A DNA stretch of 62,627 bases from a virus (taxonomy: Duplodnaviria > Caudoviricetes). Location: IMG/VR virus record IMGVR_UViG_3300030620_000006, positions 1 to 62,627 of that record; one strand, written 5' to 3'. Position numbers and translations under genes: made by a program. Under the pieces are notes generated by a model. It saw only the letters and a program-made list of their open reading frames with translations. It was not told where the DNA came from and did not search any database. Position 1 is the first letter of the stretch, and each line of letters begins with the position of its first letter. Positions 1,840-54,415 of this stretch are shown here, in pieces.

Positions 1840-2273
1840 GCCGCCTCCTCTCCGTAGCAGTCCGGCAGTCGAGCCCGGATCAGGTAGAGCGGACCCTTCC
1901 GCCACGCGGTGACGAACGGATCAGGCGTCAGCCCGTTGTGCCCCGGCCTCATCCTCCGGCAGCCCCTCTCCAGATAGCCGGTCACCAGGGTCTCGGCGTA
2001 GGAGCGCTGCCGCGTGACGTGGATCTCCTGTCCCCTGTGCTTGCACCGCAGCAGCTCCCAGGACGTCTTCGCGCAGAACGGGTCGCAGTAGACCTTGCGG
2101 GGATCGTTGGTCGCGAAGGACCGGCCGCAAAATCGGCACGATCGGCGGTTGGCCTCGGCCGTCCGGTCGCGCTTTCGACGCCACCACCAGATGCTGTAAC
2201 ACGCGTAGCACATGCCGCGCGCTCGATAGGGGCGGTCGGGGTGGCAAGAGGCGGGGCGGGTCACGAGGCGCAT
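1836..2273 (-). CDS. Zinc-finger hypothetical protein
   Basis: ARGMCYACY and CRFCGRSF...YCDPFC motifs. Confidence 0.6.
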   Translation of the reverse strand: MRLVTRPASCHPDRPYRARGMCYACYSIWWWRRKRDRTAEANRRSCRFCGRSFATNDPRKVYCDPFCAKTSWELLRCKHRGQEIHVTRQRSYAETLVTGYLERGCRRMRPGHNGLTPDPFVTAWRKGPLYLIRARLPDCYGEEAA

Positions 2274-4489
2274 GCCGTCTCCGCACAGAACAGACTCGCC
2301 TGCGGTCGCTCGGCCTCGGCCGCCCTGAGGTTCTTGCACGCTTGCTCGAAGTACGATCCTTTCAGCTCGATCCCGGCGAACAGTCGCCCTTGCTTGATCG
2401 CCTGGTAGCCGGTCGAGCCGATGCCGGCGAATGGGTCGAGCACCAGGTCGCCGGGGTTGCTCCATAGATCGATGGCGCGCTCGATCACGCCGAGCTGTAG
2501 CGGGCAGATGTGGCGCTCGTCATTCGCTTCCCGGGCGGCGCGATACTGCAAGGTGTTTCCCTGGTCGATGTCCATCCAGACCGGCGACGCCCACCTCTGC
2601 CAGCGCGCGACCGGGAAGTCCGCTGCCTCGTGGCCTACCGGTTCTGGGTTGTCGCCGGGCTTGCGCATCGTCACCAGGTAGTCCGGCAGCCCCATGCGCG
2701 AGCGGGTAGAGTCTTTCTTGACCTGCTTGTGAAGCAGGCCGAGTGCCTTGGTCCGCTGCATCTCGACCACGGGATCTTTCCAGATCACGACTTCCGAGTG
2801 ATGGATGAACCCGGCGTCCGCGAAGATGCGGATCAACTCGCCGCGAAAGTCACGCAGTCCGATCACTCCGTCTTTCCACTTCTGGAGCGGGAGATTCATG
2901 CAGTGGAAGCAGACGTGCCGTCCCGGCATCGTCACTCGGTACAGCTCGGCGACCAGGAACCGGAAGTGCTCCATGAACTCATCATCGCTGCGCACGTTGC
3001 CCATGTCTCGCTCGTTGGCCGAGTAGGTGTAGAGGCTGGCGAAGGGCGGCGAGAAGATTGACAATCCGACCGAATCCACGGCGATCGTCCGGGCAACCTC
3101 TACGGCGTCGCCGAGATGCATCGTCCAACCGTCGCCCGTCCGCTCCTCTGTCACGTAGTCCATGCTCTCCCTCCGCGCGGCCTCGTGTACGGCCGCGGTC
3201 TCGAAAACGCTCATGTGTTCGGCCACGGAGTCGGCCATCAGCCGCGCTCGCTCTTCCTTGGCGCGGACGTTCCGGAGCACCGGACCTTCCTGATCGGTGA
3301 GGATGAAATAGACATCGACCGGCTGAGTCTGCCCGAACCGCCATTCCCGGCGGGTCGCTTGATACAGCGCCTCGAAGCTGTCGGACAGGCCGACGAACAC
3401 CATCTTGCAGCAGTGCTGGAAGTTCAGCCCGTGGCCGCAGATCGACGGCTTGCTCACCAGGACCCTGTGCTCACCGCGAAGGAAGCCGAATAGTGCCGCT
3501 TCCTTCTGCTCGGTCGTGTCGGCTCCCTTTACCTCGACGGCGCCGCGGATTTCGGCGGCGAGCGCGGCGCTCTCGTCGTTCAGTTCGCACCAGACGATCC
3601 ACGGTTCGCTGCTGGCATTGGCGAGCGCCGCACATCGCGCCACGCGCTCGCTGAGCGACTGGCGGCGGACGGCGCGGCGCTCGTGCAACCCCCTAACCTC
3701 GACGGGGAAGAGGTATCCCGGGGCAGCGCCCGTTTCGATCATGATCTCGTGGCGGCGGAGCGCGGGCAGATCGTATCCTTCGTCGCTGAACCCGATATCG
3801 CTCGGTCTGCGGATGTATACCGACCACGAGGCCAGCCACCGCCAGAAGTCGATCTCGCCGTGCTTCTTCAAGCGCCACTTCGACGTATCTCCACCGTCGT
3901 GGTTGAAGAACGTCGCCAGCATCTCGACGCGATCCATGATGCCGAGGAATTCGGCGTGGTTGCCCAGCTCCATGTAGTCGTTCGGAGCGGGGGTCGCTGT
4001 GCAAGCAAGCCGGAACGGGGTTGCCGAAAATGCCTGGATGATTGCGTTGCGGGTCGCGCCGTCGTACGACTTGAGGATCGAGGATTCGTCGAGGATCACC
4101 CCGCCGAATGCCGCGGGGTCGATCTTGTGGAGGCGGTCGTAGTTGATGACGTTGACGCCGGGGCCGACGTCGTCTCGGCCGCTGATCCTGCGCACGTTGC
4201 GGATGCCGAACTTCTCGGCCTCGGCCACCGTCTGAAGCGAGACGGCCAGCGGCGCGAGCAAGAGCACGGGCGCATCCGCGTGCTCGGCGATCACCCTGCC
4301 CCATTCGAGCGACTGGATCGTCTTGCCCAAGCCGCAGTCCTCGAACAGCGCAGACCGGCAGCGCCGCAAGGCCCACTTCGTGACCGCCGCCTGCCACGGC
4401 ATGAGGCGGGGACTGAGGTCGAAGTCGCCGTTCAACCCCGCCGGCGGGGCGACGATGCGTTTTGAGGCAAGAAAGGATTCGTAGCTCAC
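2261..4489 (-). CDS. SNF2-like helicase fused to an amino (N4-C/N6-A) DNA methyltransferase
   Basis: GLGKT, DESS, TATP and RFGQ helicase motifs, then FSPPF and LDPFAGIGSTG in beta-class MTase order. Confidence 0.9.
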   Translation of the reverse strand: MSYESFLASKRIVAPPAGLNGDFDLSPRLMPWQAAVTKWALRRCRSALFEDCGLGKTIQSLEWGRVIAEHADAPVLLLAPLAVSLQTVAEAEKFGIRNVRRISGRDDVGPGVNVINYDRLHKIDPAAFGGVILDESSILKSYDGATRNAIIQAFSATPFRLACTATPAPNDYMELGNHAEFLGIMDRVEMLATFFNHDGGDTSKWRLKKHGEIDFWRWLASWSVYIRRPSDIGFSDEGYDLPALRRHEIMIETGAAPGYLFPVEVRGLHERRAVRRQSLSERVARCAALANASSEPWIVWCELNDESAALAAEIRGAVEVKGADTTEQKEAALFGFLRGEHRVLVSKPSICGHGLNFQHCCKMVFVGLSDSFEALYQATRREWRFGQTQPVDVYFILTDQEGPVLRNVRAKEERARLMADSVAEHMSVFETAAVHEAARRESMDYVTEERTGDGWTMHLGDAVEVARTIAVDSVGLSIFSPPFASLYTYSANERDMGNVRSDDEFMEHFRFLVAELYRVTMPGRHVCFHCMNLPLQKWKDGVIGLRDFRGELIRIFADAGFIHHSEVVIWKDPVVEMQRTKALGLLHKQVKKDSTRSRMGLPDYLVTMRKPGDNPEPVGHEAADFPVARWQRWASPVWMDIDQGNTLQYRAAREANDERHICPLQLGVIERAIDLWSNPGDLVLDPFAGIGSTGYQAIKQGRLFAGIELKGSYFEQACKNLRAAEAERPQASLFCAETACAS

Positions 4490-4980: not shown

Positions 4981-5703
4981 TCACGCCGCCGCCTCGATTC
5001 CGTAGAGCTTCCGCAAGGCCGCCGTCAGCCTCTTGAACGACCCCTCGACTTGCCGTAGGTGGCTACTGGTGATCTGTCCTGATTCGAGCAGGGCGGCGAG
5101 GCTCACCGCGTAGTGACTCGCGCGTACTGCCGGGGACTGCTGTTCACCGACTTCGACTCCGAAAACCTTCACCCGCTCGGCGCCCGCCCCTTGGTCTGCA
5201 AGCTCAGGTCTCCGCGCTTCACTGCGTTTTACAACGTGGCGTTGGTGTTTGTTGGCGGAGGCTCCGGGCTTCATAGCCGCCGCGGTCAGCCGAATTCCGC
5301 GCAGTCCGACGGTTGTAACAGAGAGAGCTGTCGCGATTCGATCAGGCTCAATCTTCATTCGCTCCGCGAGCATCAGGCACCGGGCGCGGTCGCGATGGCC
5401 GTAGCCACGGCCGTGTTTGGAGTTCGCTGCTACGGCATCGAGGAAGAGATCCTCTTGTGACTGGTAGTACTTTAGGATGACGGGCACGGCTGCGTCCGGC
5501 CCTCTGAGTTGGCGGAGCGCCTGGAGACGGTGCAGCCCGTCCACGACACGCTTTGTCGCGCCGTCCACGAGCAGCGGAGGAAGCTCTGCCCCCGACTTCA
5601 GAGCCTCGATCAGAGTTGCCACGTAGAGATCATCCGGATCTTCTCGTGGGTACAACTCGCCGAGCGGCTTGAGATTCTTCGCGGTGATGTATTCGACTTT
5701 CAT
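4981..5703 (-). CDS. ParB/Srx N-terminal domain protein
   Basis: LPPLLV...VVDGLHRLQAL and ANSKHGR motifs; ATG at 5703 after GAGG. The longer track ORF runs through the repeat array. Confidence 0.85.
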   Translation of the reverse strand: MKVEYITAKNLKPLGELYPREDPDDLYVATLIEALKSGAELPPLLVDGATKRVVDGLHRLQALRQLRGPDAAVPVILKYYQSQEDLFLDAVAANSKHGRGYGHRDRARCLMLAERMKIEPDRIATALSVTTVGLRGIRLTAAAMKPGASANKHQRHVVKRSEARRPELADQGAGAERVKVFGVEVGEQQSPAVRASHYAVSLAALLESGQITSSHLRQVEGSFKRLTAALRKLYGIEAAA

Positions 5704-5708
5704 AATCC

Positions 5709-5944
5709 TCGCCTCGACCTGCCTGGGCCAGCTATGCCAAGCACAGCCGCGCCGTGATCTGTTGGCCTCGCCTTGCCCTGCCCAACCCGGCATAGGCCTG
5801 CGCCGCCGAGCCTTGACGAGAGCGGATGGCCCTGCCTCGAACGGCCACGCTTCGACTCGGCCAGCATCGCCACGCCTCGTACGATGGCCTCGCCCTGACT
5901 TGCACAGCCCCGCCTCGGCGCGCCGTGCCATGCATGGCCACGCC
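5709..5944 (-). ncRNA. Pentamer-periodic (GGC-NN)n array in four blocks; putative guide-RNA locus
   Basis: 42 in-register pentamers: 25 begin GGY, 16 are one mismatch from GGC and 41 have C at position 3. Blocks are separated by 8-9 nt linkers after GGCCA. RNA status is inferred. Confidence 0.75.
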
Positions 5945-5948
5945 CGGG

Positions 5949-6503
5949 TTACTCTTTGACTTCAGCCTCGAACCTCCCGTAGATCCCGTCCCTTTCGATT
6001 CGGTAGTCGCCGACCCCGACGCGCATCCCAGCCTCGTTCAAAAGGCCGAGCACGACCACGCGATCGGCGACCTCAACGTCGATCATCAGCGGCAGATCGC
6101 ACGCCCACTTCCGGAGCATCGGGCGCGATCTGAGGATGCCCTGACGCTGCACGACCACCCGCTCGGTGTGAATCTCGAAACTCGTCAGGGGTTCATCGGT
6201 CTCCGGGTCGATCAGCGGGACGGTCTCGTTCTCCAGGAGCACGGCGCCGGCCACGATGGACTTCGCGGAGAACCGACCGATCCGCTTCCCCTTGGCGGCC
6301 GAAAGGATGGCTGCCCGGAAGGCCTTCGCCTTGATGTAGAGCTGGCCGTCAGGGAGGCGGTAGCTCCCCTGCTCGGCTTCTTCCTCCGGCGTCGGGATTT
6401 TCTTGCGACCGATGCCGCCCGGCTGGCGCATCAGCTTCTCGGGGTTGTGCTGGAGCAGCGGGGAAAGCCCGCTGACTCGATAGATCACCAGTTCAAATTG
6501 CAC
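5949..6503 (-). CDS. Stand-alone RAMP (Cas7-like RRM-fold) protein
   Basis: SGLSPLLQHN first strand, GQLYIKAKAFRAAILSAA, RSRPMLRKW, and a glycine-rich C-terminal loop AGMRVGVGDYR...GIYGRFE. Confidence 0.8.
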   Translation of the reverse strand: MQFELVIYRVSGLSPLLQHNPEKLMRQPGGIGRKKIPTPEEEAEQGSYRLPDGQLYIKAKAFRAAILSAAKGKRIGRFSAKSIVAGAVLLENETVPLIDPETDEPLTSFEIHTERVVVQRQGILRSRPMLRKWACDLPLMIDVEVADRVVVLGLLNEAGMRVGVGDYRIERDGIYGRFEAEVKE

Positions 6504-6539
6504 TCGTCACCCCTCTCCTCTCGTCAAGGGCTTGTTGGC

Positions 6540-8159
6540 TCACGCCGACCTCCCAACTTGCTCGATTGATTGGACTTCCTCGAAGGAGACGACCCGCCCG
6601 CCCCGCACCACCTGCACCGCGACCAGGCTCCGGTCACAATCCGAGCAGGTTGTGTCCAGACCCGGGCCACGGCGCAGTGATAGGTGCACATCGTCCACCC
6701 GCCACTTCGGAGACGACTTGAACCTGCCGAGCTTGCCCTTCGGCTGCTTGCCGGTCGCCGCGATCGTGACGTCCACACGCTCGACAAGCGATCTCAGAAT
6801 CCGCCGCCTCGCCGCCGCTCTGACAGGCTCTTCCAGGGCTGCTGCCGCCGCGTCGAGCGCCCGGTCCAGAGCCCCGCTGCGCGCCGCCTCCATCCGCCGG
6901 CGGGCCGAGCGGATCGTCTCCTCGAGGCGCTTGACCTGCCGGGCGGCTACGGCCCGCTGCTCCGCGAACTCGTCGCGGTCGATCTCGCCGTCCGCCCTCA
7001 TCGCGACCAGGCGGGCGAGCCGGGCGACCAGCTTGCCGCGCCGCCGCTCCATCGCCTCGATCTCGGCCGCCGGGTCGACCGCCGCGCCGGCGCGAGAACG
7101 CTCGACCAACTTCCGCACCGCGTCCGGGTGGCGCAGCAGCTCGGCGAAGCCCCGCCAGGTCAGATCGTCCACGGCCTGCCGCCGCACCCAGGCGCCGCCG
7201 CCGTCCCGGGGCCGGTAGTAGGAGCCGCCGTGGCTGCGGTCGATCACGACCCGCCGGCCGTCGACCCAGAGCAGGCCGGTCAGCATGCCCGGTAGGCCGG
7301 TCGAGGTGCCGCCGCGGTGGGCGCTGGCAGACTCCCAGGTCGCTGCGTCGATCAGAGGCTCGTGCGCTCCCTCGACCACGATGGCGTCCGGGTGGCTGGG
7401 ATCGAAGTGGAAGGCGCCGCGGTCGCCGTCTCGCCGCCACGCGCCGTTGATGATCGTGCCGAGGTAGACGGGGTTCCCGAGCACGCGCACCACCGCCGTC
7501 TTGCACCACCTACCGCCGCGAGAGGAGGGGATGCCCTCGGCATTCAGGCGCTCCGCGATGGCGCGCTGGCCGACGCCGGAGGCCGCCCACCGGAAGATGC
7601 GGCGCACGACGGCCGCCTCCTCGTCCACCACCTGCAACGTGCCGCGGAGCGGGTCGCCCGCCGGCGGGTTGTGGTAGCCGTAGGGCGCGGCGCCCCCAGT
7701 GACCTTGCCCTGACGCGCCTTCTCTCGCTTGCCCCTCTTGACCCGCTCCTTGAACCTCCGCACCTCGGCCGCGTCGACCAGTGAGACGATGCCGAAGGCG
7801 AGCCCGTCGGAGGCGTCGCCAAGGTCCCGTCGCGTGTTGTCCACCCACACCGCGATCTCCCGCTCGCGCAGCTCCCGCATGAGGAGCGCGACTTCCAGCT
7901 CGTCACCGCGGGTCAGACGGGATTGCTCGATACACCAGACGGCGTTCGCCCCGCCGGTGCGGATCGCGTCGAGCACCTGCTGCAGCACGTGGCGCTCACT
8001 GGCTGCGGCAGTGGCGGACTCAGTGCCCCTGAACTCGGCGACCGTCTGCCAGCCGTGCTGACCGGCCAGCTCGTGGTAGCGGCGGCGCTGGGCGTCGAGC
8101 GAGGCGCCGCGCTCCTCTTGGCGGTCGGTCGAGACGCGGTAGAGGGCGACTACTCGCAC
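6540..8159 (-). CDS. Large serine recombinase (integrase)
   Basis: YRVSTDRQ catalytic Ser, SRLTR, APYGY, NPVYLG, HEPLID and a coiled-coil C-terminus; GTG start at 8159 after GGAG. Confidence 0.92.
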   Translation of the reverse strand: MRVVALYRVSTDRQEERGASLDAQRRRYHELAGQHGWQTVAEFRGTESATAAASERHVLQQVLDAIRTGGANAVWCIEQSRLTRGDELEVALLMRELREREIAVWVDNTRRDLGDASDGLAFGIVSLVDAAEVRRFKERVKRGKREKARQGKVTGGAAPYGYHNPPAGDPLRGTLQVVDEEAAVVRRIFRWAASGVGQRAIAERLNAEGIPSSRGGRWCKTAVVRVLGNPVYLGTIINGAWRRDGDRGAFHFDPSHPDAIVVEGAHEPLIDAATWESASAHRGGTSTGLPGMLTGLLWVDGRRVVIDRSHGGSYYRPRDGGGAWVRRQAVDDLTWRGFAELLRHPDAVRKLVERSRAGAAVDPAAEIEAMERRRGKLVARLARLVAMRADGEIDRDEFAEQRAVAARQVKRLEETIRSARRRMEAARSGALDRALDAAAAALEEPVRAAARRRILRSLVERVDVTIAATGKQPKGKLGRFKSSPKWRVDDVHLSLRRGPGLDTTCSDCDRSLVAVQVVRGGRVVSFEEVQSIEQVGRSA

Positions 8160-8551
8160 TCGGGATCTCCGAGGAATGGGTAGGCGGCGAGCACGGACTC
8201 TGCGGCTCGCTGGGATGCGAGCGCGCGCAGCTTCCACCCGGTTTCGATGTCGGCGCGGCGGTCGTAGAGGTCCTCGGCGTCGGAGTCTACCGGTGACGTC
8301 GCCGCCGCCACCAGCTCCTTGAGCGGGCCGAGGTCTGGCGGCGGGGCGGCGAGGGCTTGCGCCGCCACTGCACGCGACTTGCGCGCCTCAGTGTGCACCC
8401 GGTGCGGCTCGCGGTCGACGACGCACTCGATAAACCAGAGCGCGCCTTTCGCCGCCGCCAGCGCCGCCCGCAGCCGCCCGACCTCCAGCGCGGCCAGCAG
8501 TTCGGTGCCCTCGGTCACCGCCTCACGCTCGATCTCTCGGGACGTTCTCAT
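8150..8551 (-). CDS. Hypothetical protein, paralog of 58048-58416
   Basis: Shares AALEVxRLRAAL, LxPLKELVAAA and VLAAYPxLG. Confidence 0.7.
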   Translation of the reverse strand: MRTSREIEREAVTEGTELLAALEVGRLRAALAAAKGALWFIECVVDREPHRVHTEARKSRAVAAQALAAPPPDLGPLKELVAAATSPVDSDAEDLYDRRADIETGWKLRALASQRAAESVLAAYPFLGDPECE

Positions 8552-8832
8552 GGCAGCTCCCCCGCCTCGACGAACGACCGCTTCGCCCCCAGCCGCCTTC
8601 TCACCATCGCGGCAGCGGACTTCCAGGCCTTCTTAGAGTCCTCGGAGTCGGCGTGCTCCGCCTTCCTGCTGAACTGGACAGCGAGGTTCTCCAGAAATAG
8701 GAGCTCGCTCCAGATGCTCAAAAGCATGACGTTGCGCGCCCAGTTGGAGATCGGAGCCGGACCACGCGCGCGGTCGATCTGCTCGCGCTCGGCCGGGGTG
8801 ACCCGAATCTGAATCCGCTCGGTTCTTTTCAT
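8548..8832 (-). CDS. Ribbon-helix-helix DNA-binding protein
   Basis: RTERIQIRVTPAEREQIDRA; TACAAT -10 box 7 nt before the ATG, with an inverted repeat just upstream (likely leaderless and autoregulated). Confidence 0.65.
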   Translation of the reverse strand: MKRTERIQIRVTPAEREQIDRARGPAPISNWARNVMLLSIWSELLFLENLAVQFSRKAEHADSEDSKKAWKSAAAMVRRRLGAKRSFVEAGELP

Positions 8833-8864
8833 CGCGATCATTGTACGCCACCTGGCGCACGAAG

Positions 8865-9080
8865 CTACAGTCCTGAGGCGATCTCCTCGACCGCCTCGAC
8901 AGTCCACCGCTCCACCAGCGCCCGGGCACCGGCTACGTCACCTCGATCGAGCGCCGCCAGAACCGCCCCCCGCACCCTGGCCGACGCCTCCCTGCGCTCC
9001 TCGGCGACGGCGAGCAGGGTGTCGGCGAGGGCGCCGTAGTCGGCCTCGTCAGGCGTCGAGAACTGGGCTATCCGGGCCAT
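8865..9080 (-). CDS. Hypothetical protein
   Basis: 71 aa ORF in operon orientation. Confidence 0.55.
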   Translation of the reverse strand: MARIAQFSTPDEADYGALADTLLAVAEERREASARVRGAVLAALDRGDVAGARALVERWTVEAVEEIASGL

Positions 9081-18140: not shown

Positions 18141-18652
18141 GACGCCGCCACCGGCTCAGGAGCCCCGGCGAAGCGCCCGGGTCCCTCCATCGCTCGCCGG
18201 CGCTCTTCCTCCGCGGCCTGCCGCTCGGCCTCCCTGCCGGCAACGTCGAGCACCCGCTGCCAGACTCGCCAGTAGTCGGCGAGGATGGCTTCCCGCTGGT
18301 CCGGAGACTCGGCGGCGGCGGCCGCATGATCGAGCGCATCGGCGGCCCGGATCAGGTCGTAGAGGACGCTCTGTCCGGTGGGCTCCGGTTGCACCCGGAT
18401 CAAGGCCCGCGCCCGCGAGATCAGCGACCCCGCCAGCGAGTGCCGCTGTACGAGGTCGTCGAGGATCCCCTCGGCGCCCGCGGGGTTGCCGCTGGCGGCG
18501 TGAGAGATGTAGTCCCACTCGGTCTCCGGCCCGGCCAGCTCGGCCAGCAGGCGAGCTGCTGCGGAGCGGGTGGTAGAGGGGCCGAAGAGATCGGCGCCGA
18601 GGCGGCGCTCTAGGGCGCCGAGATACGGGGCGGAGGGCTTGTGGAGGGTCAC
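18137..18652 (-). CDS. Hypothetical protein
   Basis: GTG start overlaps the upstream TGA. Confidence 0.6.
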   Translation of the reverse strand: MTLHKPSAPYLGALERRLGADLFGPSTTRSAAARLLAELAGPETEWDYISHAASGNPAGAEGILDDLVQRHSLAGSLISRARALIRVQPEPTGQSVLYDLIRAADALDHAAAAAESPDQREAILADYWRVWQRVLDVAGREAERQAAEEERRRAMEGPGRFAGAPEPVAAS

Positions 18653-18939
18653 GACGTCCTCCGGTTCCAGCGCCGCGCTGCCGAGCGCGCGGAGTAGTCG
18701 TGATCCGCGTAGTCCCTGCTGGCCGCGGCCGTCGCCGCCAGTCCGTGGACCTCGGCCTGGCAATCCTCCTGCTCGCACTGGACCGAGTAGCTCGCCGTCC
18801 AGGTGTTCGTCAGGCGACCCTCGCCACCGCAGAACGGGCAAGGCTTGAGCCGCGCCTCGATCTTCGCGATATGGACGAGAGACAACGGACCGAATGTGCG
18901 GTCGGTGTCGTACCTCGTGCTATCCTCTGTACTCGTCAC
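18649..18939 (-). CDS. Lar-family restriction alleviation protein
   Basis: LKPCPFCGG...VQC...C...AARRWNRR. Confidence 0.85.
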   Translation of the reverse strand: MTSTEDSTRYDTDRTFGPLSLVHIAKIEARLKPCPFCGGEGRLTNTWTASYSVQCEQEDCQAEVHGLAATAAASRDYADHDYSARSAARRWNRRTS

Positions 18940-21455: not shown

Positions 21456-21670
21456 GGGGTCACCTCGACGGCCGCGCGCACGGCTTGGCCGCGCGTCGGA
21501 AACGCGGTGTTGGGGACGTTGCTCGCGACGTAGAAGTACTCGCCAAGCGCGGCCCGCTGCCGGTGGCCGAGACGGTGAGAACTCGCGCACGACGCACGGT
21601 CCTCGGCCGAGTACCTCTGGAAGCACCGGGTCACGGCCACGCCGTCCGGCGGTTGCTGGCGAGCGCCCAT
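21452..21670 (-). CDS. Hypothetical protein
   Basis: Shares the ASNVP..FP.RG.A.RAA module with 19786-20532. Confidence 0.6.
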   Translation of the reverse strand: MGARQQPPDGVAVTRCFQRYSAEDRASCASSHRLGHRQRAALGEYFYVASNVPNTAFPTRGQAVRAAVEVTP

Positions 21671-21921
21671 CACGCCGCCTCCCCGGTGGCCGACCCGTCC
21701 TGGGGGAGCGTCCACGAAGACTGTGGTACGGCGCCGTCGGTCAAATCCGCGATCCGGTTCGCCACCGGCAGGCTCAGGCCCCGGCGCCGGCGGGCGAGCA
21801 GGTGGGAGATCAGGGACTCGTGAACGCCGAAGAGCTGAGCGGCCGAGCGCTGCGAGTAGCCCTTCTCACCCATCCAGAGCTGGAGTAGCTCGGCCCCGTC
21901 CCGCGAGTGATTCTCTCTCAT
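21670..21921 (-). CDS. Cro-like XRE HTH regulator
   Basis: YSQRSAAQLFGVHESLISHLL...IADLTDGAV; divergent from the CI-like gene. Confidence 0.85.
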   Translation of the reverse strand: MRENHSRDGAELLQLWMGEKGYSQRSAAQLFGVHESLISHLLARRRRGLSLPVANRIADLTDGAVPQSSWTLPQDGSATGEAA

Positions 21922-21928
21922 GGACCGG

Positions 21929-22019
21929 ATGGTACATGACGCCACGTCACGCTGTCAACCCCAAATCTTGATTCGGCGTCACATCTTGACGGGCGGGGGA
22001 TTCTTGACGTACCGTCAAG
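21929..22019. promoter_or_regulatory. Divergent lysis/lysogeny control region with three operators and a leftward promoter
   Basis: TGACG-N3-CGTCA at 21937-21949 and 22005-22017, with a degenerate copy at 21969-21981; TTGACA-N18-TACCAT on the minus strand (21958-21929). Confidence 0.75.
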
Positions 22020-22023
22020 CGCC

Positions 22024-22479
22024 GTGGACGCTTCGCTCTTCGCCGGGATTGGGTCCGCCATCCGGTCGCTCCGCGAATCTCGGGGGCTGAACAGAGATCG
22101 GCTGGCGACCCGCATCGGCGTGCACCCGAGCACGCTGAGCCACCTGGAGAGCGGCCGGAATTACCCGAGTTGGAACTCCCTGTCGAAGATCCTCGACGCC
22201 CTCGACGCCGACCTCCTGGGCCTCCACTACGCCCTGACCGGCGAACCCGCGCCGCCTCCTCCGCCAGTCAACGCCGTCGGCCCCGATGAGCCGATCGACT
22301 ACTTCAAGGTCCGGATGGCCACCGAGTGGCTGGCTAAGGGCGAGCGGTGGGAGGACTTGAAAGAAATCGCGATGTCTGGCAAGCTACCCGGTCTAGAGCG
22401 CGCGGGCGAGACATCGGGGCTGGTAGACAAGGGGACAGCCCCCGTGCGCGGGAAAGCGGACCGTGGGAATGGGAGCTAA
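22024..22479 (+). CDS. CI-like XRE HTH repressor
   Basis: IRSLRESRGLNRDRLATRIGVHPSTLSHLESGRNYPS; no S24 peptidase domain visible. Confidence 0.85.
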   Translation: MDASLFAGIGSAIRSLRESRGLNRDRLATRIGVHPSTLSHLESGRNYPSWNSLSKILDALDADLLGLHYALTGEPAPPPPPVNAVGPDEPIDYFKVRMATEWLAKGERWEDLKEIAMSGKLPGLERAGETSGLVDKGTAPVRGKADRGNGS

Positions 22480-23491
22480 GTTGGATCTCCACCTACCGAC
22501 CCTCGCCGACCTCAGCATGCTCTCCTCAAGGGCGCGCTGCCACCGCCTCGAGATCAGCGACGAGCTGCGCACGCCGGGCCTGCTGGAGCTGCTGATGGTC
22601 GAGGCCCGGGGGCGCGGCCGGCGGGCGATCGGGTGGGCCTACTCCGCGATCTCCGCTGCCGAGCGGCCTGAGGATCAGGCCCTTGGCTACGCCCTGCTGG
22701 GTCAGGCGCTCCGCCGGGAGGCGTGCCTCTCCGCCGCGGCCAGCGCCTTCGACCGTGCGGCCGATCTGATCCCCGCCGAGGGTGATCCCGATGTCCGTGC
22801 CGAAGCGCTCGGCCTGGTCGGCAGGTGGCGCCAGCACCTCCGGGACTTCGACGCCGCCGGCGAGCTGCTCCGCGCCGCGCTCGACCTCATGCCGCCGGGC
22901 ACCGATCGGCACCTGCATCTGCGGATCGCGGAGGCGACGGGGCGGGGGCAGGCCGGCCAGCCCGGGGCGGCGACGAACGCCCTGGCAACGATCGCTCTGG
23001 AACTGCGCGAGCGGAAGGCGGCGGACGAATGGCTCGATCTCGTGGTCGGCCACAACCTCGCCTCCATGCTGACCCTTGCCGGCGAGCACGATCTCGCCCT
23101 CAGGACCCTGATCGAGCTGCGCGCGCTCTACCTCCGGACCGCCGGCCAGTCCTACGCCTACAAGGCCAACTGGCTCGCCGGCCGGATCGCTCTCGACCTC
23201 GGCCAGCACGAGGCCGCGGACGCGCAGCTCTCATCCGTCGCTGCGTCGGCCAACCTCCGCGACCCGATCGACCGCGGCCTGCTCGAGCTGGAACGAGCCC
23301 ATGCCGCGCTCGGCTGCGGCCGGTGGGCGGAGGCTGGCGAGCGGGCAACCCGGGCGGCGGGTCTGCTCGGCGGGCTCGGAATCCGAGTCGAGGCGACGGC
23401 GGCGGCGATCACGGCAGCGGAGGCGATCCAGGCCGGGACGGGCCGGGCGCTGGCCGCTGTGATCGCCGCGCGACGGCGGATGGGCGCCTAG
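22463..23491 (+). CDS. TPR-like helical repeat protein
   Basis: ALLGQAL...AASAFDRA, HNLASML...GEHDLAL and WLAGRIALDLGQHEAA repeats; overlaps the repressor stop. Confidence 0.75.
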   Translation: MGMGAKLDLHLPTLADLSMLSSRARCHRLEISDELRTPGLLELLMVEARGRGRRAIGWAYSAISAAERPEDQALGYALLGQALRREACLSAAASAFDRAADLIPAEGDPDVRAEALGLVGRWRQHLRDFDAAGELLRAALDLMPPGTDRHLHLRIAEATGRGQAGQPGAATNALATIALELRERKAADEWLDLVVGHNLASMLTLAGEHDLALRTLIELRALYLRTAGQSYAYKANWLAGRIALDLGQHEAADAQLSSVAASANLRDPIDRGLLELERAHAALGCGRWAEAGERATRAAGLLGGLGIRVEATAAAITAAEAIQAGTGRALAAVIAARRRMGA

Positions 23492-23501
23492 TATCAATCT
23501 C

Positions 23502-23550
23502 GCTAAAGTGTGTCGCAGGGGTTGACTTCTGTCCGCGGATAGCGGATACT
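23502..23550 (+). promoter_or_regulatory. Sigma70-type promoter with an internal operator
   Basis: TTGACT(23522)-N17-GATACT(23545); TCCGC-N5-GCGGA palindrome at 23532-23546. Confidence 0.65.
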
Positions 23551-23608
23551 GTCTCCAGTGAACAGGGAGAGGCGATCAAGCCCCCCGGAACCGAGAGGGA
23601 GAACCCCG

Positions 23609-23800
23609 ATGCGCTACGACCACGAAGACGACCTGAGCATCACCACCATCCGGAATCGCCCCGAAGACCTGACCGCCTCCATCCGCGAGCTGCGCCGCCA
23701 GGGGCTCGACCCCTCGACCTTCCGGCATAGCCTGGCGCAGACCAAGGGCGCGACGGTGGAAGCGGTCGACGCGGCGATCGCCGCCGAGGTGGCGCGATGA
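23609..23800 (+). CDS. Small hypothetical protein
   Basis: GAGGGAG RBS, downstream of the promoter. Confidence 0.6.
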   Translation: MRYDHEDDLSITTIRNRPEDLTASIRELRRQGLDPSTFRHSLAQTKGATVEAVDAAIAAEVAR

Positions 23801-24075
23801 CCAAGACCACCGCCACGCGACAGGCCGCCTCCGAGGTGACCATCTACCGCCAGGGGCGCGACTGGATCGTCAGCCGGTACGACGAGCGCATCGGCTGCAA
23901 CCGCCTGACGGAGCCCATGGACTACCCGCGGGCTCGTGAGCACCGCACGGTGTGCGTCGCCGATCGTGCGCTGACCCTCCTCGGCTGCGACGAGGGCTCC
24001 CGCGCCGTCGCGATCTACTCCGCCGGTACCTATCGCGAGCGCATCGACCGAGCGCTCGCCGCCGACGCGTCCTAG
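23797..24075 (+). CDS. Small hypothetical protein
   Basis: ATGA coupling. Confidence 0.65.
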   Translation: MTKTTATRQAASEVTIYRQGRDWIVSRYDERIGCNRLTEPMDYPRAREHRTVCVADRALTLLGCDEGSRAVAIYSAGTYRERIDRALAADAS

Positions 24076-24086
24076 GAGAAGACCCG

Positions 24087-24371
24087 ATGGACACCACCAC
24101 ACCGACCGCCATCGCCGCCCGGCTCGCGAGCATCCTGGAGGAGATCGAGGCCCTCCGGGAGTCCTATCCGGCCCGCCCGTCGCGCCTCGGTCCTCCCGCC
24201 CCCGGCGACGATCGCCCCTACCCGGGCACTGAGACGGGGGCCACGTGGCAGGATCACCACGATGCGATGCGGCGCGAGATCGAGGCTGCGGCGGTGAAGA
24301 TCCGAGACGCCGCCCTGATCATCGCGGGCGCCCACGACCGAGCCGCCGCGTACTGCGGCGTGGAAAGCTGA
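24087..24371 (+). CDS. Small hypothetical protein
   Basis: AGGAG RBS. Confidence 0.6.
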   Translation: MDTTTPTAIAARLASILEEIEALRESYPARPSRLGPPAPGDDRPYPGTETGATWQDHHDAMRREIEAAAVKIRDAALIIAGAHDRAAAYCGVES

Positions 24372-24374
24372 TCT

Positions 24375-24608
24375 ATGACCCCCGGCCAACTCGCCCCCGC
24401 CGACCTCGCCCGCTGTGGCCGCGCCCTGACCGGCTCCGACCGTTGGCGCCGCCCGCTCGCCGACATGCTCGGCTGCGACGACCGCCTGGTGCGGCGGTGG
24501 GCCAGCGGCGAGGCCCCGGTGCAGTCGTGGGCCGAGAAGCGCCTCCGCGAGCTGGTCGCCGCACGGCAGCGCGACCTAGCTGCGCTCGCGGAGGCACTGG
24601 ACGCCTAG
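24375..24608 (+). CDS. Small HTH regulator
   Basis: WRRPLADMLGCDDRLVRRWASGEAPV. Confidence 0.75.
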   Translation: MTPGQLAPADLARCGRALTGSDRWRRPLADMLGCDDRLVRRWASGEAPVQSWAEKRLRELVAARQRDLAALAEALDA

Positions 24609-24838
24609 CCCCCGGGGTCGATCTCTGGCCCGGAGTCCCCCTCCTCTCCCCCGGCGTTGCTCTGCTCCGGCGGAGCGGCAGGCGGCGGACCGAGCACTGC
24701 CCCGACCATCGCCTCCACCCACCCCCGCACCACCTCCACCCAGGACCGCTCCATCCGATCCTGCTCGAGCGGCGCCGCGACCGCCGGCACCGCACCGATC
24801 AGCACGACTGCGACCACCAGGCAGATGAGCTTGCGCAT
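24605..24838 (-). CDS. Small secreted peptide precursor
   Basis: Sec signal MRKLICLVVAVVLIGAVPAVA, an amphipathic Trp helix and a polar tail ending GDSGPEIDPGG. Confidence 0.75.
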   Translation of the reverse strand: MRKLICLVVAVVLIGAVPAVAAPLEQDRMERSWVEVVRGWVEAMVGAVLGPPPAAPPEQSNAGGEEGDSGPEIDPGG

Positions 24839-25001
24839 GTGCTCCCCCTTCCGAGCTGACGGGACGGCCGAGATTGGCCGGGCGTCGGCCCCCTTCGCGT
24901 CGGAGTGTATCGGCTTATAGAAACCGGCGCATGGGGTTGCGGGGCGAAGCCGGGGGGAGTAGGCTCGGCGAATCCTGCGGTGACCCCAGAGGAGCGCGGC
25001 G

Positions 25002-25619
25002 ATGGATAGACTCCGATCCCTGGCGAGTTCGTGGTCGGGCCTCAGCGACTCGGCCCGTGCGCACCTCTGGGGGCGGCTGAGCCCAGAGGAGCAGTCCAGT
25101 CTCCAGGAGTTGCTCGCGAATCCAGCACCGCGCCGGCGCTGGAGTGCTACTCACCGGCTGATCTTCTTGAGCGTGGTCGGCGTTATCGTCCTGCTCGGCG
25201 CCCTCGCCGTCGAGTCGCTGTCGAGGACGAAAGAGCAGCGCGAGGCCCGGGCGGTCAATGCCAGGAAGATGCAGGAGCAGGCGGAGGCGAGGGAGCAGGA
25301 GCAACTCCTCAACCCACAGGTGCGACTCGAACGGGTAACGAGCGACGCCACCTCCGGGACCTACTTGATCCGCCGCGCGAACTACGTGACGATCGAGGGC
25401 GCCGTCGCCAACGCCGGCCCTGGAGCCGTCTCATCCGTCGAGGTCCGCTGCGCCCTGATCCACCGCTCGACCCGGCAGGAGAGCGACGCCGAGCTGAGCT
25501 ACGTGGTGGGCGCCGAGGGCTTGCCGCCGGGCAGCTCGCGCGCCTTCGAAGTGATGCTGAGGCGGCCGGACGAGTCCTGGCAGTACCTGGAGTCCTGCCG
25601 AATTGTGGGCTGGCGCTGA
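25002..25619 (+). CDS. Membrane-anchored protein with an Ig-like (FxLYD-type) domain
   Basis: One TM helix, a coiled coil, then VTIEGAVANAG...VEVRC...LPPGSSRAFEV. Confidence 0.65.
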   Translation: MDRLRSLASSWSGLSDSARAHLWGRLSPEEQSSLQELLANPAPRRRWSATHRLIFLSVVGVIVLLGALAVESLSRTKEQREARAVNARKMQEQAEAREQEQLLNPQVRLERVTSDATSGTYLIRRANYVTIEGAVANAGPGAVSSVEVRCALIHRSTRQESDAELSYVVGAEGLPPGSSRAFEVMLRRPDESWQYLESCRIVGWR

Positions 25620-25801: not shown

Positions 25802-26326
25802 ATGGCTCGCTCGCCCGCAAAGCCCCGACCGGACGCTGCCCCGAAGCGGTCTCCCCGGAAGGCTGGTAAGGGCAAGCCAGACGCCGCACCAACCACCCCG
25901 AAGCGCCGCCCCGTCGGCCGCCCCGCCTCGATCACCCCGCAGCTCGCCGAGGTCATCCTGGATCGCCTCGCCTGCCAGTCTGTCGAGCAGGTGTTCACCG
26001 ACCCGAAGATGCCGGACCGGGCGACCTTCTACAACCACTGCAAGCACTCGCCGGAGTTCTTCGACGCCTCCGCGCGTGCGCGAGCCCTCCGTGCGCTGGT
26101 CGAGCTGGACGAAGCCGAGCGCTCCCTGGCCGACGCCAAGCCCTCGGACATCCCGGTCGTTCGGGAGCGGATGCAGCATGCCCGGTGGAAGGTCAGCCGG
26201 ATGCTGGCCAAGTACTACGGCGAGCGGCTTGCGCTCTCTGCCCCGGACGGCGGCCCCATCCCCGTCGAAATCACCTCCGCCGATGAGGCCCGCGAAGCGC
26301 TGCGCAAGGCCGGGGTCGACTCGTAA
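25802..26326 (+). CDS. terS: Terminase small subunit
   Basis: GRPA...VILDRLA...MPDRATFYNH...ARAR...RWKVSRM..KYYGER; directly upstream of terL. Confidence 0.85.
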   Translation: MARSPAKPRPDAAPKRSPRKAGKGKPDAAPTTPKRRPVGRPASITPQLAEVILDRLACQSVEQVFTDPKMPDRATFYNHCKHSPEFFDASARARALRALVELDEAERSLADAKPSDIPVVRERMQHARWKVSRMLAKYYGERLALSAPDGGPIPVEITSADEAREALRKAGVDS

Positions 26327-26345: not shown

Positions 26346-27941
26346 GTGAACGACCCCGCCGCCGAGATCCTCCGTCGCGGCCAGCGCCTCACCCGCCTCG
26401 CCAACCACAGCGGAAAGCCCCGCCCCACGGCTGAGCGCGCCGCCAACTTCGCCGCCGAGCGCTCGCTCTGCCACGCTGACATCCATCACTGGCTCGACGA
26501 GTGGGGGTGGATCCAGGACCCCAAGGCGCAAGACTCCGCCGAGCGGGTGATTCCCTTCCGCGCGTGGCCCCGGCAGGTCGAGTACGTCGACTGGCTGCTC
26601 GATGGCGCCGAGCGGGGGGCGCCGCGGGTGCTCAACAAGAGTCGGGAGGTGGGGGCGACGTGGGTTGCGCTGATGGTCCTCTACTGGCTGTGGCTGACGT
26701 CGGACCACTTCTATGCCCACCTCGCCAGCCGCAAGGAGCCGGCGGTCGACGACCTCGGGCCGAAGAGCCTGTTCGGCAAGTTGGCCTTCATCGCCCGGAC
26801 CCAGCCGAGCTTCCTCCGCCCTGCGAAGTTCAGCCTCGATAAGAACAGGAAGAAGCTCCACCTCGAGAACCCTGCCAACGGGTCGCTGATCACTGGCGAG
26901 GGGCTTTCCCACGGCTTCAGCCGCGGCGACCGCGTCGGCGTCCTGCTCACCGATGAATGGGCGCACGTCCCGCACCATCTCCAGCAGCAGATCCGCCTCG
27001 GCATCGAGAGCGTGGCGCGCAGCTGGTGGGCGATCTCGACACCCAACGGGCGCGGCGATGACTTCCACAGCCGGTGGAGGCTGGCGGCCGAAGCCGACCG
27101 CTTCGAGATCGGCTGGGAGGACGACCCCCGCAAGAGCCGGGGCTGGTACGACGCCCTGCTGGTCTCGGCCGGCGGGCAGCTCACCGAAGACGAGCGCGCG
27201 CAAGAGCACGGGCGCAGCTTTGTCGGCGTCAGCGGCGAGCGGGTGTGGCGGGCCGCGCGGGCGGCGGTGACGTACCGCGAGCGTCCCCCGCACTTCGACC
27301 ACCTGCCGATCCTTGGTGCCATGGACTTCGGCAGCGGCCCCTCGCTCACCGTACTCGCCCTCGCCCGTATCGAGTGGGCGGAGGGCTCACCGATCATCTG
27401 GCTCGAGCGGGTGCGGACCTGGCAGCGGTGGGCGGCTGCGGAGGTGGGGGCCGAGATCGTTGCCATGCTCCCGCCGGGCACCATGGCGCACATCGTCGGC
27501 GACCCGTCGGGTATCGCCGCCGACAGCTCGCAGTCAAGCTGGGAGAAGGGGCTGCGCGGGGCCGGCGTTCCGTTCCGCTGCCTGCCCGCTGACTACAACA
27601 CCCGCACCGGGATCGACGACTCGCTACGCGACGTGCAGCGCCAGCTCGACGGCGGGGGGCTGCGCATCCACGCCGAGGATGCATCGCTTGCGCTCGACAC
27701 GATCGAGAGTTGGCAGTACGACATCCCCGAGGGCATGCCGCTCGACCTGGTCAACCGCAAGGAGATCTCTCCGCGCAAAGATGCATGGTCGCACGTCGGC
27801 GACGCGCTGAGGTATCTGGTATCATGCGTCCTGCGTCAGGGACTCCCGAGCGAGGACAGCGAGGTGGAGGCGGGGTTCGAGGCGGCGCCGATGACGGAGG
27901 TGGGAGCAATCTTGGACATGTACCGGCGGGCGGGTCTGTGA
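26346..27941 (+). CDS. terL: Terminase large subunit
   Basis: KSREVGATW Walker A, LTDEWA, ISTPNG, AMDFG and SHVGDALRY. Confidence 0.92.
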   Translation: MNDPAAEILRRGQRLTRLANHSGKPRPTAERAANFAAERSLCHADIHHWLDEWGWIQDPKAQDSAERVIPFRAWPRQVEYVDWLLDGAERGAPRVLNKSREVGATWVALMVLYWLWLTSDHFYAHLASRKEPAVDDLGPKSLFGKLAFIARTQPSFLRPAKFSLDKNRKKLHLENPANGSLITGEGLSHGFSRGDRVGVLLTDEWAHVPHHLQQQIRLGIESVARSWWAISTPNGRGDDFHSRWRLAAEADRFEIGWEDDPRKSRGWYDALLVSAGGQLTEDERAQEHGRSFVGVSGERVWRAARAAVTYRERPPHFDHLPILGAMDFGSGPSLTVLALARIEWAEGSPIIWLERVRTWQRWAAAEVGAEIVAMLPPGTMAHIVGDPSGIAADSSQSSWEKGLRGAGVPFRCLPADYNTRTGIDDSLRDVQRQLDGGGLRIHAEDASLALDTIESWQYDIPEGMPLDLVNRKEISPRKDAWSHVGDALRYLVSCVLRQGLPSEDSEVEAGFEAAPMTEVGAILDMYRRAGL

Positions 27942-53621: not shown

Positions 53622-53819
53622 ATGACAGCGGCCCGCGAGCACGAAGCGTCCATCCACTTCCGCCTCCCGGTCGACCTGGCGGGCGCTCTGCGTCAGCGGG
53701 CCGAGGACAACGGGCGCACCCTGAGCGGTGAGTTGCGCTGGCTCGTCCGGGGGGCAATCGAGCGCAGCGAGCCCGGTGGACGGCACTGCCGGGCCGCTGC
53801 GGGGAGGGCGAAGCGATGA
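53622..53819 (+). CDS. Arc-like ribbon-helix-helix regulator
   Basis: IHFRLPVDLAGALRQRAEDNGRTLSGELRWLV. Confidence 0.8.
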   Translation: MTAAREHEASIHFRLPVDLAGALRQRAEDNGRTLSGELRWLVRGAIERSEPGGRHCRAAAGRAKR

Positions 53820-54415
53820 GCAAGCCCGACCACCCCACCCCCTTCGCCTACCAGGCCGCCGCCTGGCTGCTGATGTGCGAGCCCGCGGCGATCCGTGCGG
53901 TCGCCGAGGTCGAGGCCGGTCCGCATGGCGCCTTCCTCGACTCGGGCGAGCCGACCATCCTGTTCGAGCGCCACGTCTTCCATGGGCTGACCCGCGGCCG
54001 CTTCGCGGGTGCTCGGGTGCCCGGCGCTCCGGCGTCCTGGTCGCTGATCTCGATCCCGATCCCGGGAGGCTACGGGCCGACCTCTGCGCAGCATCGGCGT
54101 CTCCAGGCGGCGGTAGCGCTCGACCGAGACGCGGCGCTGCGCTCCGCCTCGTGGGGGCTGTACCAGCAGCTCGGCCGCGATCAGCAGTACTCACCGAGCC
54201 TCCAGCGCTTCATCACCGCGATGTACCGCGGGGTGGACGACCACCTGCGAGCGTTCGTCATGTTCATCCGGGCGAACGAGCGGCTGGTCGACGCGCTGCG
54301 GGGGCTCGACTGGCCGACCTTCGCGCGCTGGTACAACGGCCCCAGTCACGCTCGACACGACTACGCGGGGCGGATGGCTGCGGCGTACGAGCGGGCGCTA
54401 GGAGTGGAGCCATGA
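53816..54415 (+). CDS. Endolysin, N-acetylmuramidase (DUF3380-type)
   Basis: AVAEVEA, PTILFERHVF, SASWGLYQ and FARWYNGP. Confidence 0.92.
   Translation: MSKPDHPTPFAYQAAAWLLMCEPAAIRAVAEVEAGPHGAFLDSGEPTILFERHVFHGLTRGRFAGARVPGAPASWSLISIPIPGGYGPTSAQHRRLQAAVALDRDAALRSASWGLYQQLGRDQQYSPSLQRFITAMYRGVDDHLRAFVMFIRANERLVDALRGLDWPTFARWYNGPSHARHDYAGRMAAAYERALGVEP

Follow-up and report, generated by a model that had tools for sequence, protein, structure and literature searches.

The window analyzed here is the whole of the linear IMG/VR record IMGVR_UViG_3300030620_000006 (62,627 bases, about 70% G+C, estimated to be 78% complete), which is a temperate phage. Its leftward early operon and its rightward operon diverge at 21945/22024, and the subject of this report is a set of three genes to the right of that point: a helix-turn-helix (HTH) repressor gene (HTH151), a tetratricopeptide repeat (TPR) protein gene (TPR342) and, on the opposite strand, a gene for a small exported protein (pep77), which together may form a peptide-sensing switch.

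The switch region and the three genes

HTH151 (22024-22479, plus strand) occupies the CI position and is assigned to the XRE family of repressors by Pfam (HTH_31, E 1e-12; HTH_3, E 1.8e-11). In the protein, an HTH head (approximately residues 9-65) is joined by a Pro-rich linker to a tail of 75 aa, and no S24 or other peptidase domain was matched in Pfam at E-values up to 0.1. On the other side of the switch, the 91-aa Cro-like HTH gene (21670-21945, minus strand; HTH_31, E 1.2e-5; PHROG transcriptional regulators) heads the leftward early operon, and a promoter-like sequence, TTGACA-18-TACCAT (21958-21929, minus strand; a consensus match), would serve it. The switch intergenic region (21935-22019) carries a perfect 7-3-7 palindrome, CTTGACGTACCGTCAAG, at 22003-22019 and a copy with two mismatches at 21935-21951. 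These are two of the five matches returned by a scan that allowed up to three mismatches, the other three being at chance level, and both are candidate operators. No intrinsic terminator-like site was found between 21500 and 25900.

TPR342 (22463-23491, plus strand; 342 aa) starts 17 nt before the end of the HTH151 gene, an overlap that suggests translational coupling. An earlier note on this DNA, made from the sequence alone, had described a CI-like gene without peptidase whose end is overlapped by a TPR gene, and had named HNLA...WLxGRIA as motifs of similar TPR proteins; all of these features were recovered, the motifs as GHNLAS (residues 196-201) and NWLAGRIAL (residues 236-244). Pfam returned for TPR342 generic TPR hits below threshold and nothing else. 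The AlphaFold model, based on 61 relatives, is an all-helical TPR superhelix of 19 helices, with a mean predicted local distance difference test score (pLDDT) of 92.1 and a predicted template modelling score (pTM) of 0.89. Over the 61 relatives, residues N81, R84, H197 and W237 are conserved; they are located in helices 69-85, 189-205 and 229-245, which are alternate "A" helices of the model. Alternate helices of TPR superhelices line the concave face, and in the model the conserved residues would face that surface. No signal peptide or transmembrane segment is present in TPR342, in HTH151 or in the other TPR proteins checked, which points to a cytoplasmic receptor and an exported peptide.

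When the model was compared with known structures using VIA-align, the top match was APPBP2, a receptor of C-terminal peptide tails (Z 26.1, root-mean-square deviation [rmsd] 4.4, 327 residues aligned). The best bacterial matches were Rap and NprR proteins, which fill 8 of the top 11 rows and include the Rap of phage phi3T with its pheromone (Z 23.5, rmsd 3.9, 296 aligned), RapF–PhrF (Z 22.8, rmsd 3.9, 302 aligned) and NprR–NprX (Z 21.9, rmsd 4.5, 295 aligned); AimR (Z 18.0, rmsd 4.8, 285 aligned) and PlcR (Z 16.9) score lower. The modelled fold is thus RRNPP-like, and a structural likeness by itself could reflect either deep homology or convergent TPR repeats. A complex prediction for TPR342 (61-row alignment) and residues 44-77 of pep77, run without controls, gave a score of 0.19 and a mark of 0.32, and has no weight either way as regards binding.

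The third gene, pep77 (24605-24838, minus strand), is convergent with the HTH–TPR operon, with its stop 1114 nt from that of TPR342, and its 77-aa product is a predicted exported pro-peptide. It comprises a signal peptide (residues 1-22: MRK, then hydrophobic residues 4-22 with a 19-residue Kyte-Doolittle mean of 2.90, ending AVA/A), an amphipathic Trp-containing helix (approximately residues 24-49), a Pro-rich linker (50-57) and an acidic, Gly-rich tail that ends in GDSGPEIDPGG. The last eight residues, GPEIDPGG (24608-24631, minus strand), correspond to the C-terminal motif of the family described below and are the candidate mature signal. The earlier note had placed a 77-aa gene with a Sec signal and this tail about 1.1 kb away; the gene is present, on a strand and behind four intervening genes that the note did not mention. 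Two other readings of pep77 were rejected: for a lipoprotein or spanin, a lipobox is missing (Cys6 precedes the hydrophobic core), as is a nearby muramidase gene (the one in the window is distant, at 53816-54415), and a PEP-CTERM protein would have its motif followed by a transmembrane segment and a basic tail, which pep77 does not have.

Third-position GC backs the reading frames of HTH151, TPR342 and pep77. For pep77, the GC pattern fits the minus-strand frame and one antisense plus-strand frame alike, so that the open reading frame (ORF) alone left the strand undecided. The minus strand was chosen because of homologues elsewhere and because of a synonymous bias in the codon differences from three relatives (10 synonymous to 2 non-synonymous, 10 to 4 and 9 to 5 in the minus frame), and on these grounds the gene looks real. 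Upstream of it, a conserved region (24839-24965, minus strand), with GGAAGGGGGAG before the ATG, probably holds its own promoter and 5' leader: pep77 and about 130 bp upstream are approximately 90% identical in DNA across four phages, and the products of both flanking genes are 42-57% identical.

Relatives in phages and in Acidobacteriota genomes

Close relatives of TPR342 fall into only three clusters (97, 64, and 45% identity), and those of pep77 into clusters of at least 92% identity only. Three phage contigs were recovered, L004, L005 (truncated at the HTH gene) and L006, all of which have a TPR gene and a convergent peptide gene. The TPR proteins are 96-98% or 62% identical to TPR342 (96% in L004, 62% in L006) and are preceded by a diverged HTH gene (60% identity in L004, 32% in L006), whilst the peptide gene lies 0.7-1.2 kb downstream of the TPR gene (0.7 kb in L004 and L006), is 93-95% identical and is separated from it by a variable set of genes. 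DNA homology with L004 begins at about 22185, inside the HTH151 gene just past the recognition helix, and continues to where the TPR gene ends; at the protein level, 30 of 70 residues of the HTH151 head and 59 of 79 of its tail are identical. Because the homology block starts within the HTH gene, the DNA-binding head appears to have been exchanged. On this sequence evidence, heteroimmune relatives swap the HTH head and retain the repressor tail along with the TPR and peptide genes.

The four small cargo genes between the TPR and peptide genes of the window (23558-23800, 23797-24075, ~24087-24371 and 24375-24608, all on the plus strand) are preceded by a promoter-like TTGACT-17-GATACT (23522-23550, plus strand; 9/12 matches, a consensus match only). 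The last of them encodes a 77-aa protein of phrog_3626/12690 (unknown function) with a faint Aca2/YdiL-like Pfam hit; its stop overlaps that of pep77 by 4 nt, and it alone of the four recurs beside the peptide gene, in L005 (90%) and L006 (57%), being absent from L004. On the other side, divergent from pep77, the gene at 25002-25619 (plus strand) encodes a 205-aa single-pass membrane protein whose C-terminal domain is conserved, at 40-42% identity, in its positional counterparts in L005 and L006. Its match to FxLYD is weak (E 4e-4, below the cut-off) and one to anti-sigma proteins is weaker still. This gene might belong with the peptide gene.

More distant relatives are numerous. Among 1.84 billion representatives, a profile search picked up 1402 TPR relatives at E ≤1e-3 and 204 at E ≤1e-10; the nearest are 356-370 aa long, two of them named as coming from an Acidobacteriota metagenome-assembled genome (MAG), and many others are about 450 aa long, with an N-terminal CxxC zinc-finger-like region. 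When four close TPR sequences were searched against genome contigs no locus was found, and a six-row alignment found two, L008 and L009; the chromosomal TPR subgroup, searched against viral contigs, found nothing. A phylum-wide TPR search at E 1e-55 gave 2 of 301 genomes, a figure of little weight since six candidates were scored per genome.

The L008 locus (relative P0015) comes from an Acidobacteriota MAG, in which its contig is 3.48 Mb long, and has the same layout as the window. A Cro-like HTH gene (5266-5520, minus strand) is followed by the genes for HTH136 (5594-6004, plus strand; 136 aa) and TPR366 (6001-7101, plus strand; 366 aa), which overlap by 4 nt, and TPR366 is about 30% identical to TPR342. 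Convergent with the TPR gene and abutting its stop, with no intervening genes, is an 80-aa signal-peptide ORF (7098-7340, minus strand) that is 39% identical to pep77 over its full length and contains a Trp-containing amphipathic stretch, the sequence PPPSPAPP and the ending GGPENDPNG. A scan for signal-peptide ORFs brought it to light after it had been missed by tblastn with pep77, probably owing to low complexity. The shared layout suggests that the TPR–peptide pair survives divergence to about 30% TPR identity. L008 may be a prophage, since two flanking genes match PHROG families (one of unknown function, one tail-lysozyme-like). Two paralogous lipoprotein genes (7488-8180 and 8194-8949, plus strand; LAGC and LAAC lipoboxes), with no family match, come after the TPR/peptide pair there.

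Linkage between the two families was examined in both directions. From TPR to peptide, two genomes picked by TPR homology only (G001 and G002) gave 16 and 11 matches, 24 of them strong, and for 17 of these 24 strong TPR paralogues an ORF with both a signal peptide and [DE]PxG lies no more than about 1.5 kb away. In the reverse direction, 401 genomes of the class were searched with a hidden Markov model (HMM) built on four peptide sequences; 38 of them gave weak matches, and 30 loci were retrieved. Fourteen of the 30 have a TPR homologue (E ≤1e-5) at a distance of at most 1.5 kb. On inspection, the family type of signal-peptide ORF was recognized in 18 of the 30 hits and the other 12 look spurious, and a TPR gene stands beside 16 of the 18 once the flanks are extended. 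The background was estimated from 233 kb more than 1 kb from TPR domains, which holds eight filtered ORFs, four of them family members and four unrelated; the resulting chance rate of about one ORF per 58 kb predicts about 1.5 for 24 loci, compared with the 17 seen. These control loci were picked by peptide hits, so they inform on the false-positive rate only. The TPR and peptide families therefore appear genomically linked, far above background, in both search directions. The earlier note had named the co-occurrence of TPR homologues with DPxG peptides as a check, and a lack of linkage as one of the outcomes that would speak against its proposal; the linkage is there.

These counts bear on two other explanations. 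That pep77 is an unrelated moron placed by chance near the immunity region would suit its distance of 1.1 kb, its strand and the variability of the genes in between, but the abutting homologue in L008 and the excess of linked paralogues make such a chance neighbourhood very improbable. A second possibility is that the TPR protein is only a ligand-free co-repressor, an oligomerization scaffold or an anti-repressor for the peptidase-less repressor, and that the peptide gene is functionally separate. It would account for the HTH–TPR gene overlap, which is kept at 30-96% TPR identity, and for the co-variation of the repressor tail with the TPR protein, and two metagenome contigs (2.3 and 1.8 kb) carry HTH and TPR genes with no visible peptide gene, although both are too short to reveal one. 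The strength of the peptide linkage in both directions, extending to the distant L008, nevertheless leaves this explanation improbable.

The peptides themselves share a motif, of which 56 instances were tallied; they come from 37 non-redundant ORFs close to TPR genes, and a few of these ORFs are probably false. G is found at position -4 in 37 instances, P at -3 in 20 and I, L, or V at -1 in 34, followed by D (44) or E (12), and by N or D after the P in 34, which gives the consensus G-P-x-[ILV]-[DE]-P-x-G. The motif is at most six residues from the C-terminus in 23 of the 37 ORFs and is repeated two to five times in 8 of the 37 precursors, for example four times as SRYTIDPNG (L011), five times as GPxLEPDG (L056) and three times as GCxIDPxG (L059); L071 has three identical HGVDPDG units and one variant, FDPNG. 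Only the short motif is repeated and the spacers vary, as expected of a released oligopeptide. Passages in two papers describe propeptides with several peptide copies for the Rap, NprR, PlcR, and AimR systems (PMC9765709; PMC11343458).

This pattern also bears on whether the exported protein is instead a regulated output that acts in the envelope, for instance in superinfection exclusion, in surface modification or as a bacteriocin-like product, with the TPR protein sensing some other cytoplasmic ligand. Like a lysogenic-conversion gene, pep77 has its own conserved upstream region, opposite strand and membrane-protein neighbour; moreover, the amphipathic Trp helix that follows the signal peptide is conserved in all precursors, which suggests a role beyond the tail, and regulator–target pairs are genomically linked too. 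However, tandem copies of the 8-9-residue motif alone point to a released short unit, the closest structural matches of TPR342 are peptide-bound receptors, and up to 16 paralogous pairs per genome fit the diversification of signals and receptors better than that of effectors. In addition, no copy of the switch palindrome was found upstream of pep77. We consider the output explanation unlikely, while giving it a real share of the probability.

The peptide gene is located upstream of the TPR gene on the same strand in 18 cases, convergent in 12, downstream on the same strand in 6 and divergent in 1, and the convergent order accompanies the HTH-coupled versions, phages included. Three receptor architectures are distinguished: (i) an XRE-HTH gene separate from the TPR gene, with a convergent peptide gene (the window, L008, L063, L064, and L066), (ii) XRE-HTH–TPR fusions of 477 and 647 aa (L059), and (iii) zinc-finger-like TPR proteins preceded by a peptide gene (L050, L051, L058, L065, and two tandem pairs in L057). 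Among the last, zf-HC2 was detected by Pfam in 1 of 40 relatives (P0014), and CxxC is visible by eye in four of four long forms; TPR342 starts past that region. The 647-aa frame of L059 (4352-6295, minus strand), in which the HTH begins at residue 179, is probably over-extended at its 5' end, and the three-repeat peptide gene (5933-6220, plus strand) lies antisense to the extension, where automatic annotation would hide it. The window cassette has the features that define the family, namely a TPR protein with HNLA and W..G/ARIA beside a gene that encodes a signal peptide, a Trp helix and the motif.

A second subtype of exported peptide, with a signal peptide, an amphipathic helix and a Pro-rich end without xDPxG, was observed beside pairs of HTH and 400-430-aa TPR genes; its members are found in L061 (5916-6098), L063 (5914-6102), L064 (~5511-5678), and L066 (719-901), with the endings ...GIVTPRP, ...NPVPPRP, ...AGPPHP, and ...GIGPPKP.

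As regards the host, all relatives of TPR342 with a named source are Acidobacteriota MAGs, and the look-alike clusters of the TPR protein and of the peptide are mostly from Acidobacteriota, with some TPR clusters from Gemmatimonadota. The host is thus likely to belong to Acidobacteriota, the phylum that the earlier note had suggested. The large terminase offers distant matches alone, at 39-42% identity in 2 of the 401 genomes of the class, and all of its matches among cultured phages are below 33% identity. The layout of the window, as called by third-position GC, is that of a typical temperate phage: the leftward early operon has a Lar-like gene, RecE-like and RecT-like genes, a DnaB-like helicase gene, an HNH gene, a serine integrase gene (6540-8237) and a helicase-methyltransferase gene, and the rightward operon has small (25802-26326) and large (26346-27941) terminase genes, a Mu-type portal gene, a tape measure gene and the muramidase gene, which is far from pep77. 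The 742-aa helicase/DNA-methyltransferase-like protein (2261-4489, minus strand) and the Lar-like restriction-alleviation protein (18649-18939, minus strand) are likely anti-restriction functions of the phage. No tRNA genes were found in the window.

Proposed mechanism

The best explanation of these data, in our view, is that the phage carries, in split form, a type of peptide-receptor cassette found in abundance in Acidobacteriota. HTH151 would act as the immunity (maintenance) repressor, binding the palindromes of the 78-bp switch region, with its C-terminal tail held by TPR342, so that the two chains together would correspond to the one-chain HTH–TPR regulators of the relatives; the HTH-then-TPR pairing is conserved across the sequences, and fused forms exist. 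The pep77 product would be exported by Sec and cleaved by signal peptidase, and its GPEIDPGG end, once released, would build up outside as infected or lysogenic cells become denser, and be taken up again. Binding of the peptide to the concave TPR face would then alter repressor activity and bias the choice between lysis and lysogeny, or the threshold of induction; by analogy with arbitrium, the effect would favor lysogeny. With a repressor devoid of an autopeptidase domain, the peptide could be the main input of the phage for either decision. That a split RRNPP-like receptor senses an exported and re-imported peptide and tunes the repressor, as an arbitrium analogue in a diderm phylum, has in our judgment about an even chance of being correct. 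The same idea had been put forward in the earlier note, and it stands as regards the linkage, the HTH–TPR pairing, the RRNPP-like fold and the host phylum; the HTH–TPR contact, the processing of the peptide, its passage through the outer membrane, its import and binding, and the effect on the switch are steps that we infer.

That so many steps are of this kind weighs against the proposal, as do several observations. Within this phage group the peptide is 93-95% invariant while the TPR proteins range from 62 to 96%, so no co-divergence of receptor and peptide is visible. Four unrelated genes and 1.1 kb separate the pep77 gene, which is on the other strand, from the TPR gene, and the search for a palindrome copy as a regulatory link upstream of it, mentioned above, found none. 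No RRNPP-type profile in Pfam, NCBIfam or PHROG matches TPR342, and MalT, LGN and subunits of the APC also reach Z 18-20; TPR superhelices being this generic, the fold fits an RRNPP-like receptor but is no proof of one. Most chromosomal paralogues have the CxxC zinc-finger-like region at their N-terminus instead of an HTH. Seven of the 24 strong TPR paralogues have no detected DPxG peptide gene: six have no candidate (one at a contig end), and the seventh is accompanied by a signal-peptide ORF whose tail, ...CHMACNWWPCG, is rich in Cys and lacks the DPxG motif (L014, 1056-1352, minus strand). Conversely, two peptide genes, in L053 (3585-3833, FGPELDPTG) and L054 (6135-6398, GMEWDPNG), have no TPR homologue within about 5 kb and may be orphan signals. 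Finally, the diderm envelope adds an outer-membrane step.

This last difficulty, and with it the need for re-import, would be spared if the TPR protein bound the unexported precursor or its tail inside the cell, and thus reported on Sec or envelope stress or served as a titration timer, with no signaling between cells. Such in-cell sensing is compatible with a cytoplasmic TPR protein whose peptide gene is always nearby, and the top structural match does receive C-terminal protein tails. On the other hand, strong signal peptides are kept in all members of the family, and the internal copies of multi-copy motifs are not C-terminal tails. To our knowledge, in-cell precursor sensing by such a TPR cassette has no precedent, and we regard it as improbable.

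Release and re-import of the peptide can be placed in a wider hypothesis, which we advance tentatively and rate somewhat below even. Acidobacteriota would run a large, diversified pheromone system of cytoplasmic TPR receptors and exported peptides of the G-P-x-I-D-P-N-G type, with up to about 16 cassettes per genome, independent of or very distant from the RRNPPA systems of Bacillota. Temperate phages of these bacteria would have acquired one cassette, lost from it the domain for DNA binding or the zinc finger, and coupled the remainder to a CI-like repressor without peptidase; with it they would count their own kin and choose between lysis and lysogeny, so that arbitrium would have been re-invented across the Gram divide.

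If the proposed switch operates, phage–phage signaling would reach diderm hosts and one of the most abundant soil phyla, and the question would arise of how peptides cross an outer membrane and return. A repressor without an autopeptidase domain would also imply a non-SOS route to prophage control. The proposal is directly testable, as the GPEIDPGG end is a short candidate ligand that can be synthesized and the receptor is a soluble protein of 342 aa.

Comparison with known peptide systems

In two accounts, RRNPP(A) receptors are assigned to Bacillota together with the conjugative elements and phages of that phylum, and communication by peptides through cytoplasmic TPR receptors, the lysis–lysogeny choice of phages included, is described there only for Bacillota and their mobile elements (PMC12700828; PMC10075063). 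Among the matches listed, the RRNPPA literature concerns Bacillota or their phages throughout, as judged by title and abstract, and no printed account of RRNPP or TPR–peptide quorum sensing in Acidobacteria was found, relevance being judged by title and abstract. The word stem "Acidobacteri" is absent from the text of PMC12700828 and PMC9765709. The window cassette has two of the hallmarks of these systems, a cytoplasmic TPR-superhelix receptor and, in its neighborhood, an exported pro-peptide gene (at 1.1 kb in the window, abutting in L008, and within reach of 17 of 24 paralogues). A further hallmark, re-import of the mature oligopeptide through Opp and its binding in the TPR groove, would have its counterpart in the uptake and binding proposed here. 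The cassette has neither profile homology to Rap, Rgg, NprR, PlcR, PrgX or AimR nor an occurrence in Bacillota, its named relatives being Acidobacteriota.

Two further systems share single elements with the cassette. Lambdoid phages likewise have divergent Cro-like and CI-like HTH genes that flank a short operator region bearing palindromes; lambda CI, however, has an S24 autopeptidase for RecA-dependent induction, whereas HTH151 has no S24 domain and appears to be coupled to a TPR protein instead. The zf-HC2 anti-sigma factors combine an N-terminal HxxxCxxC zinc finger with an extracytoplasmic function (ECF) sigma partner, whereas TPR342 has no zinc finger, and no sigma-factor (ECF) domain was found among 33 proteins encoded beside the zinc-finger TPR paralogues.

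The Rap–Phr systems (phages phi3T and phi105; pLS20) provide the best bacterial structural matches, with Z 20-23.5 over approximately 295-300 residues. They share with the cassette a receptor that has no DNA-binding domain of its own and acts, or in the cassette would act, through a partner, carriage by mobile elements and multi-copy pro-peptides. They differ in that Rap targets response regulators or ComA rather than an XRE repressor, that phr lies directly downstream on the same strand, and that they are confined to Bacillota. PlcR–PapR and NprR–NprX have the architecture of the fused XRE-HTH–TPR relatives (L059), with a gene for a small secreted peptide adjoining, and the active part of pep77, like that of PapR, would be C-terminal. 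By contrast, the window version is split and has no profile homology to them, and many host paralogues carry a CxxC N-terminus and no HTH.

The closest parallel in function would be arbitrium, the AimR–AimP–AimX system of SPbeta-like Bacillus phages. Both are phage-encoded and located at the lysis–lysogeny decision, and both have a cytoplasmic TPR receptor tied to an HTH and a small Sec-exported pro-peptide of which the extreme C-terminus would be the signal. The endings are also alike, as AimP peptides end in GG or GA and pep77 ends in GG. However, AimR is one HTH–TPR chain, whereas HTH151 and TPR342 are two chains without sequence-level homology to it, and aimP lies directly downstream, whereas pep77 is convergent and 1.1 kb away behind four genes. 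Furthermore, the HTH gene of the window is in the CI position and divergent from a Cro-like gene, the peptide motif is GPxIDPxG, no aimX-like element was identified in a search limited to promoter and terminator scans, and the likely host is a diderm of Acidobacteriota rather than a member of Bacillota. Judged from its sequences, the system is no demonstrable member of the arbitrium or PlcR–PapR families, yet it would resemble them in the way it works.

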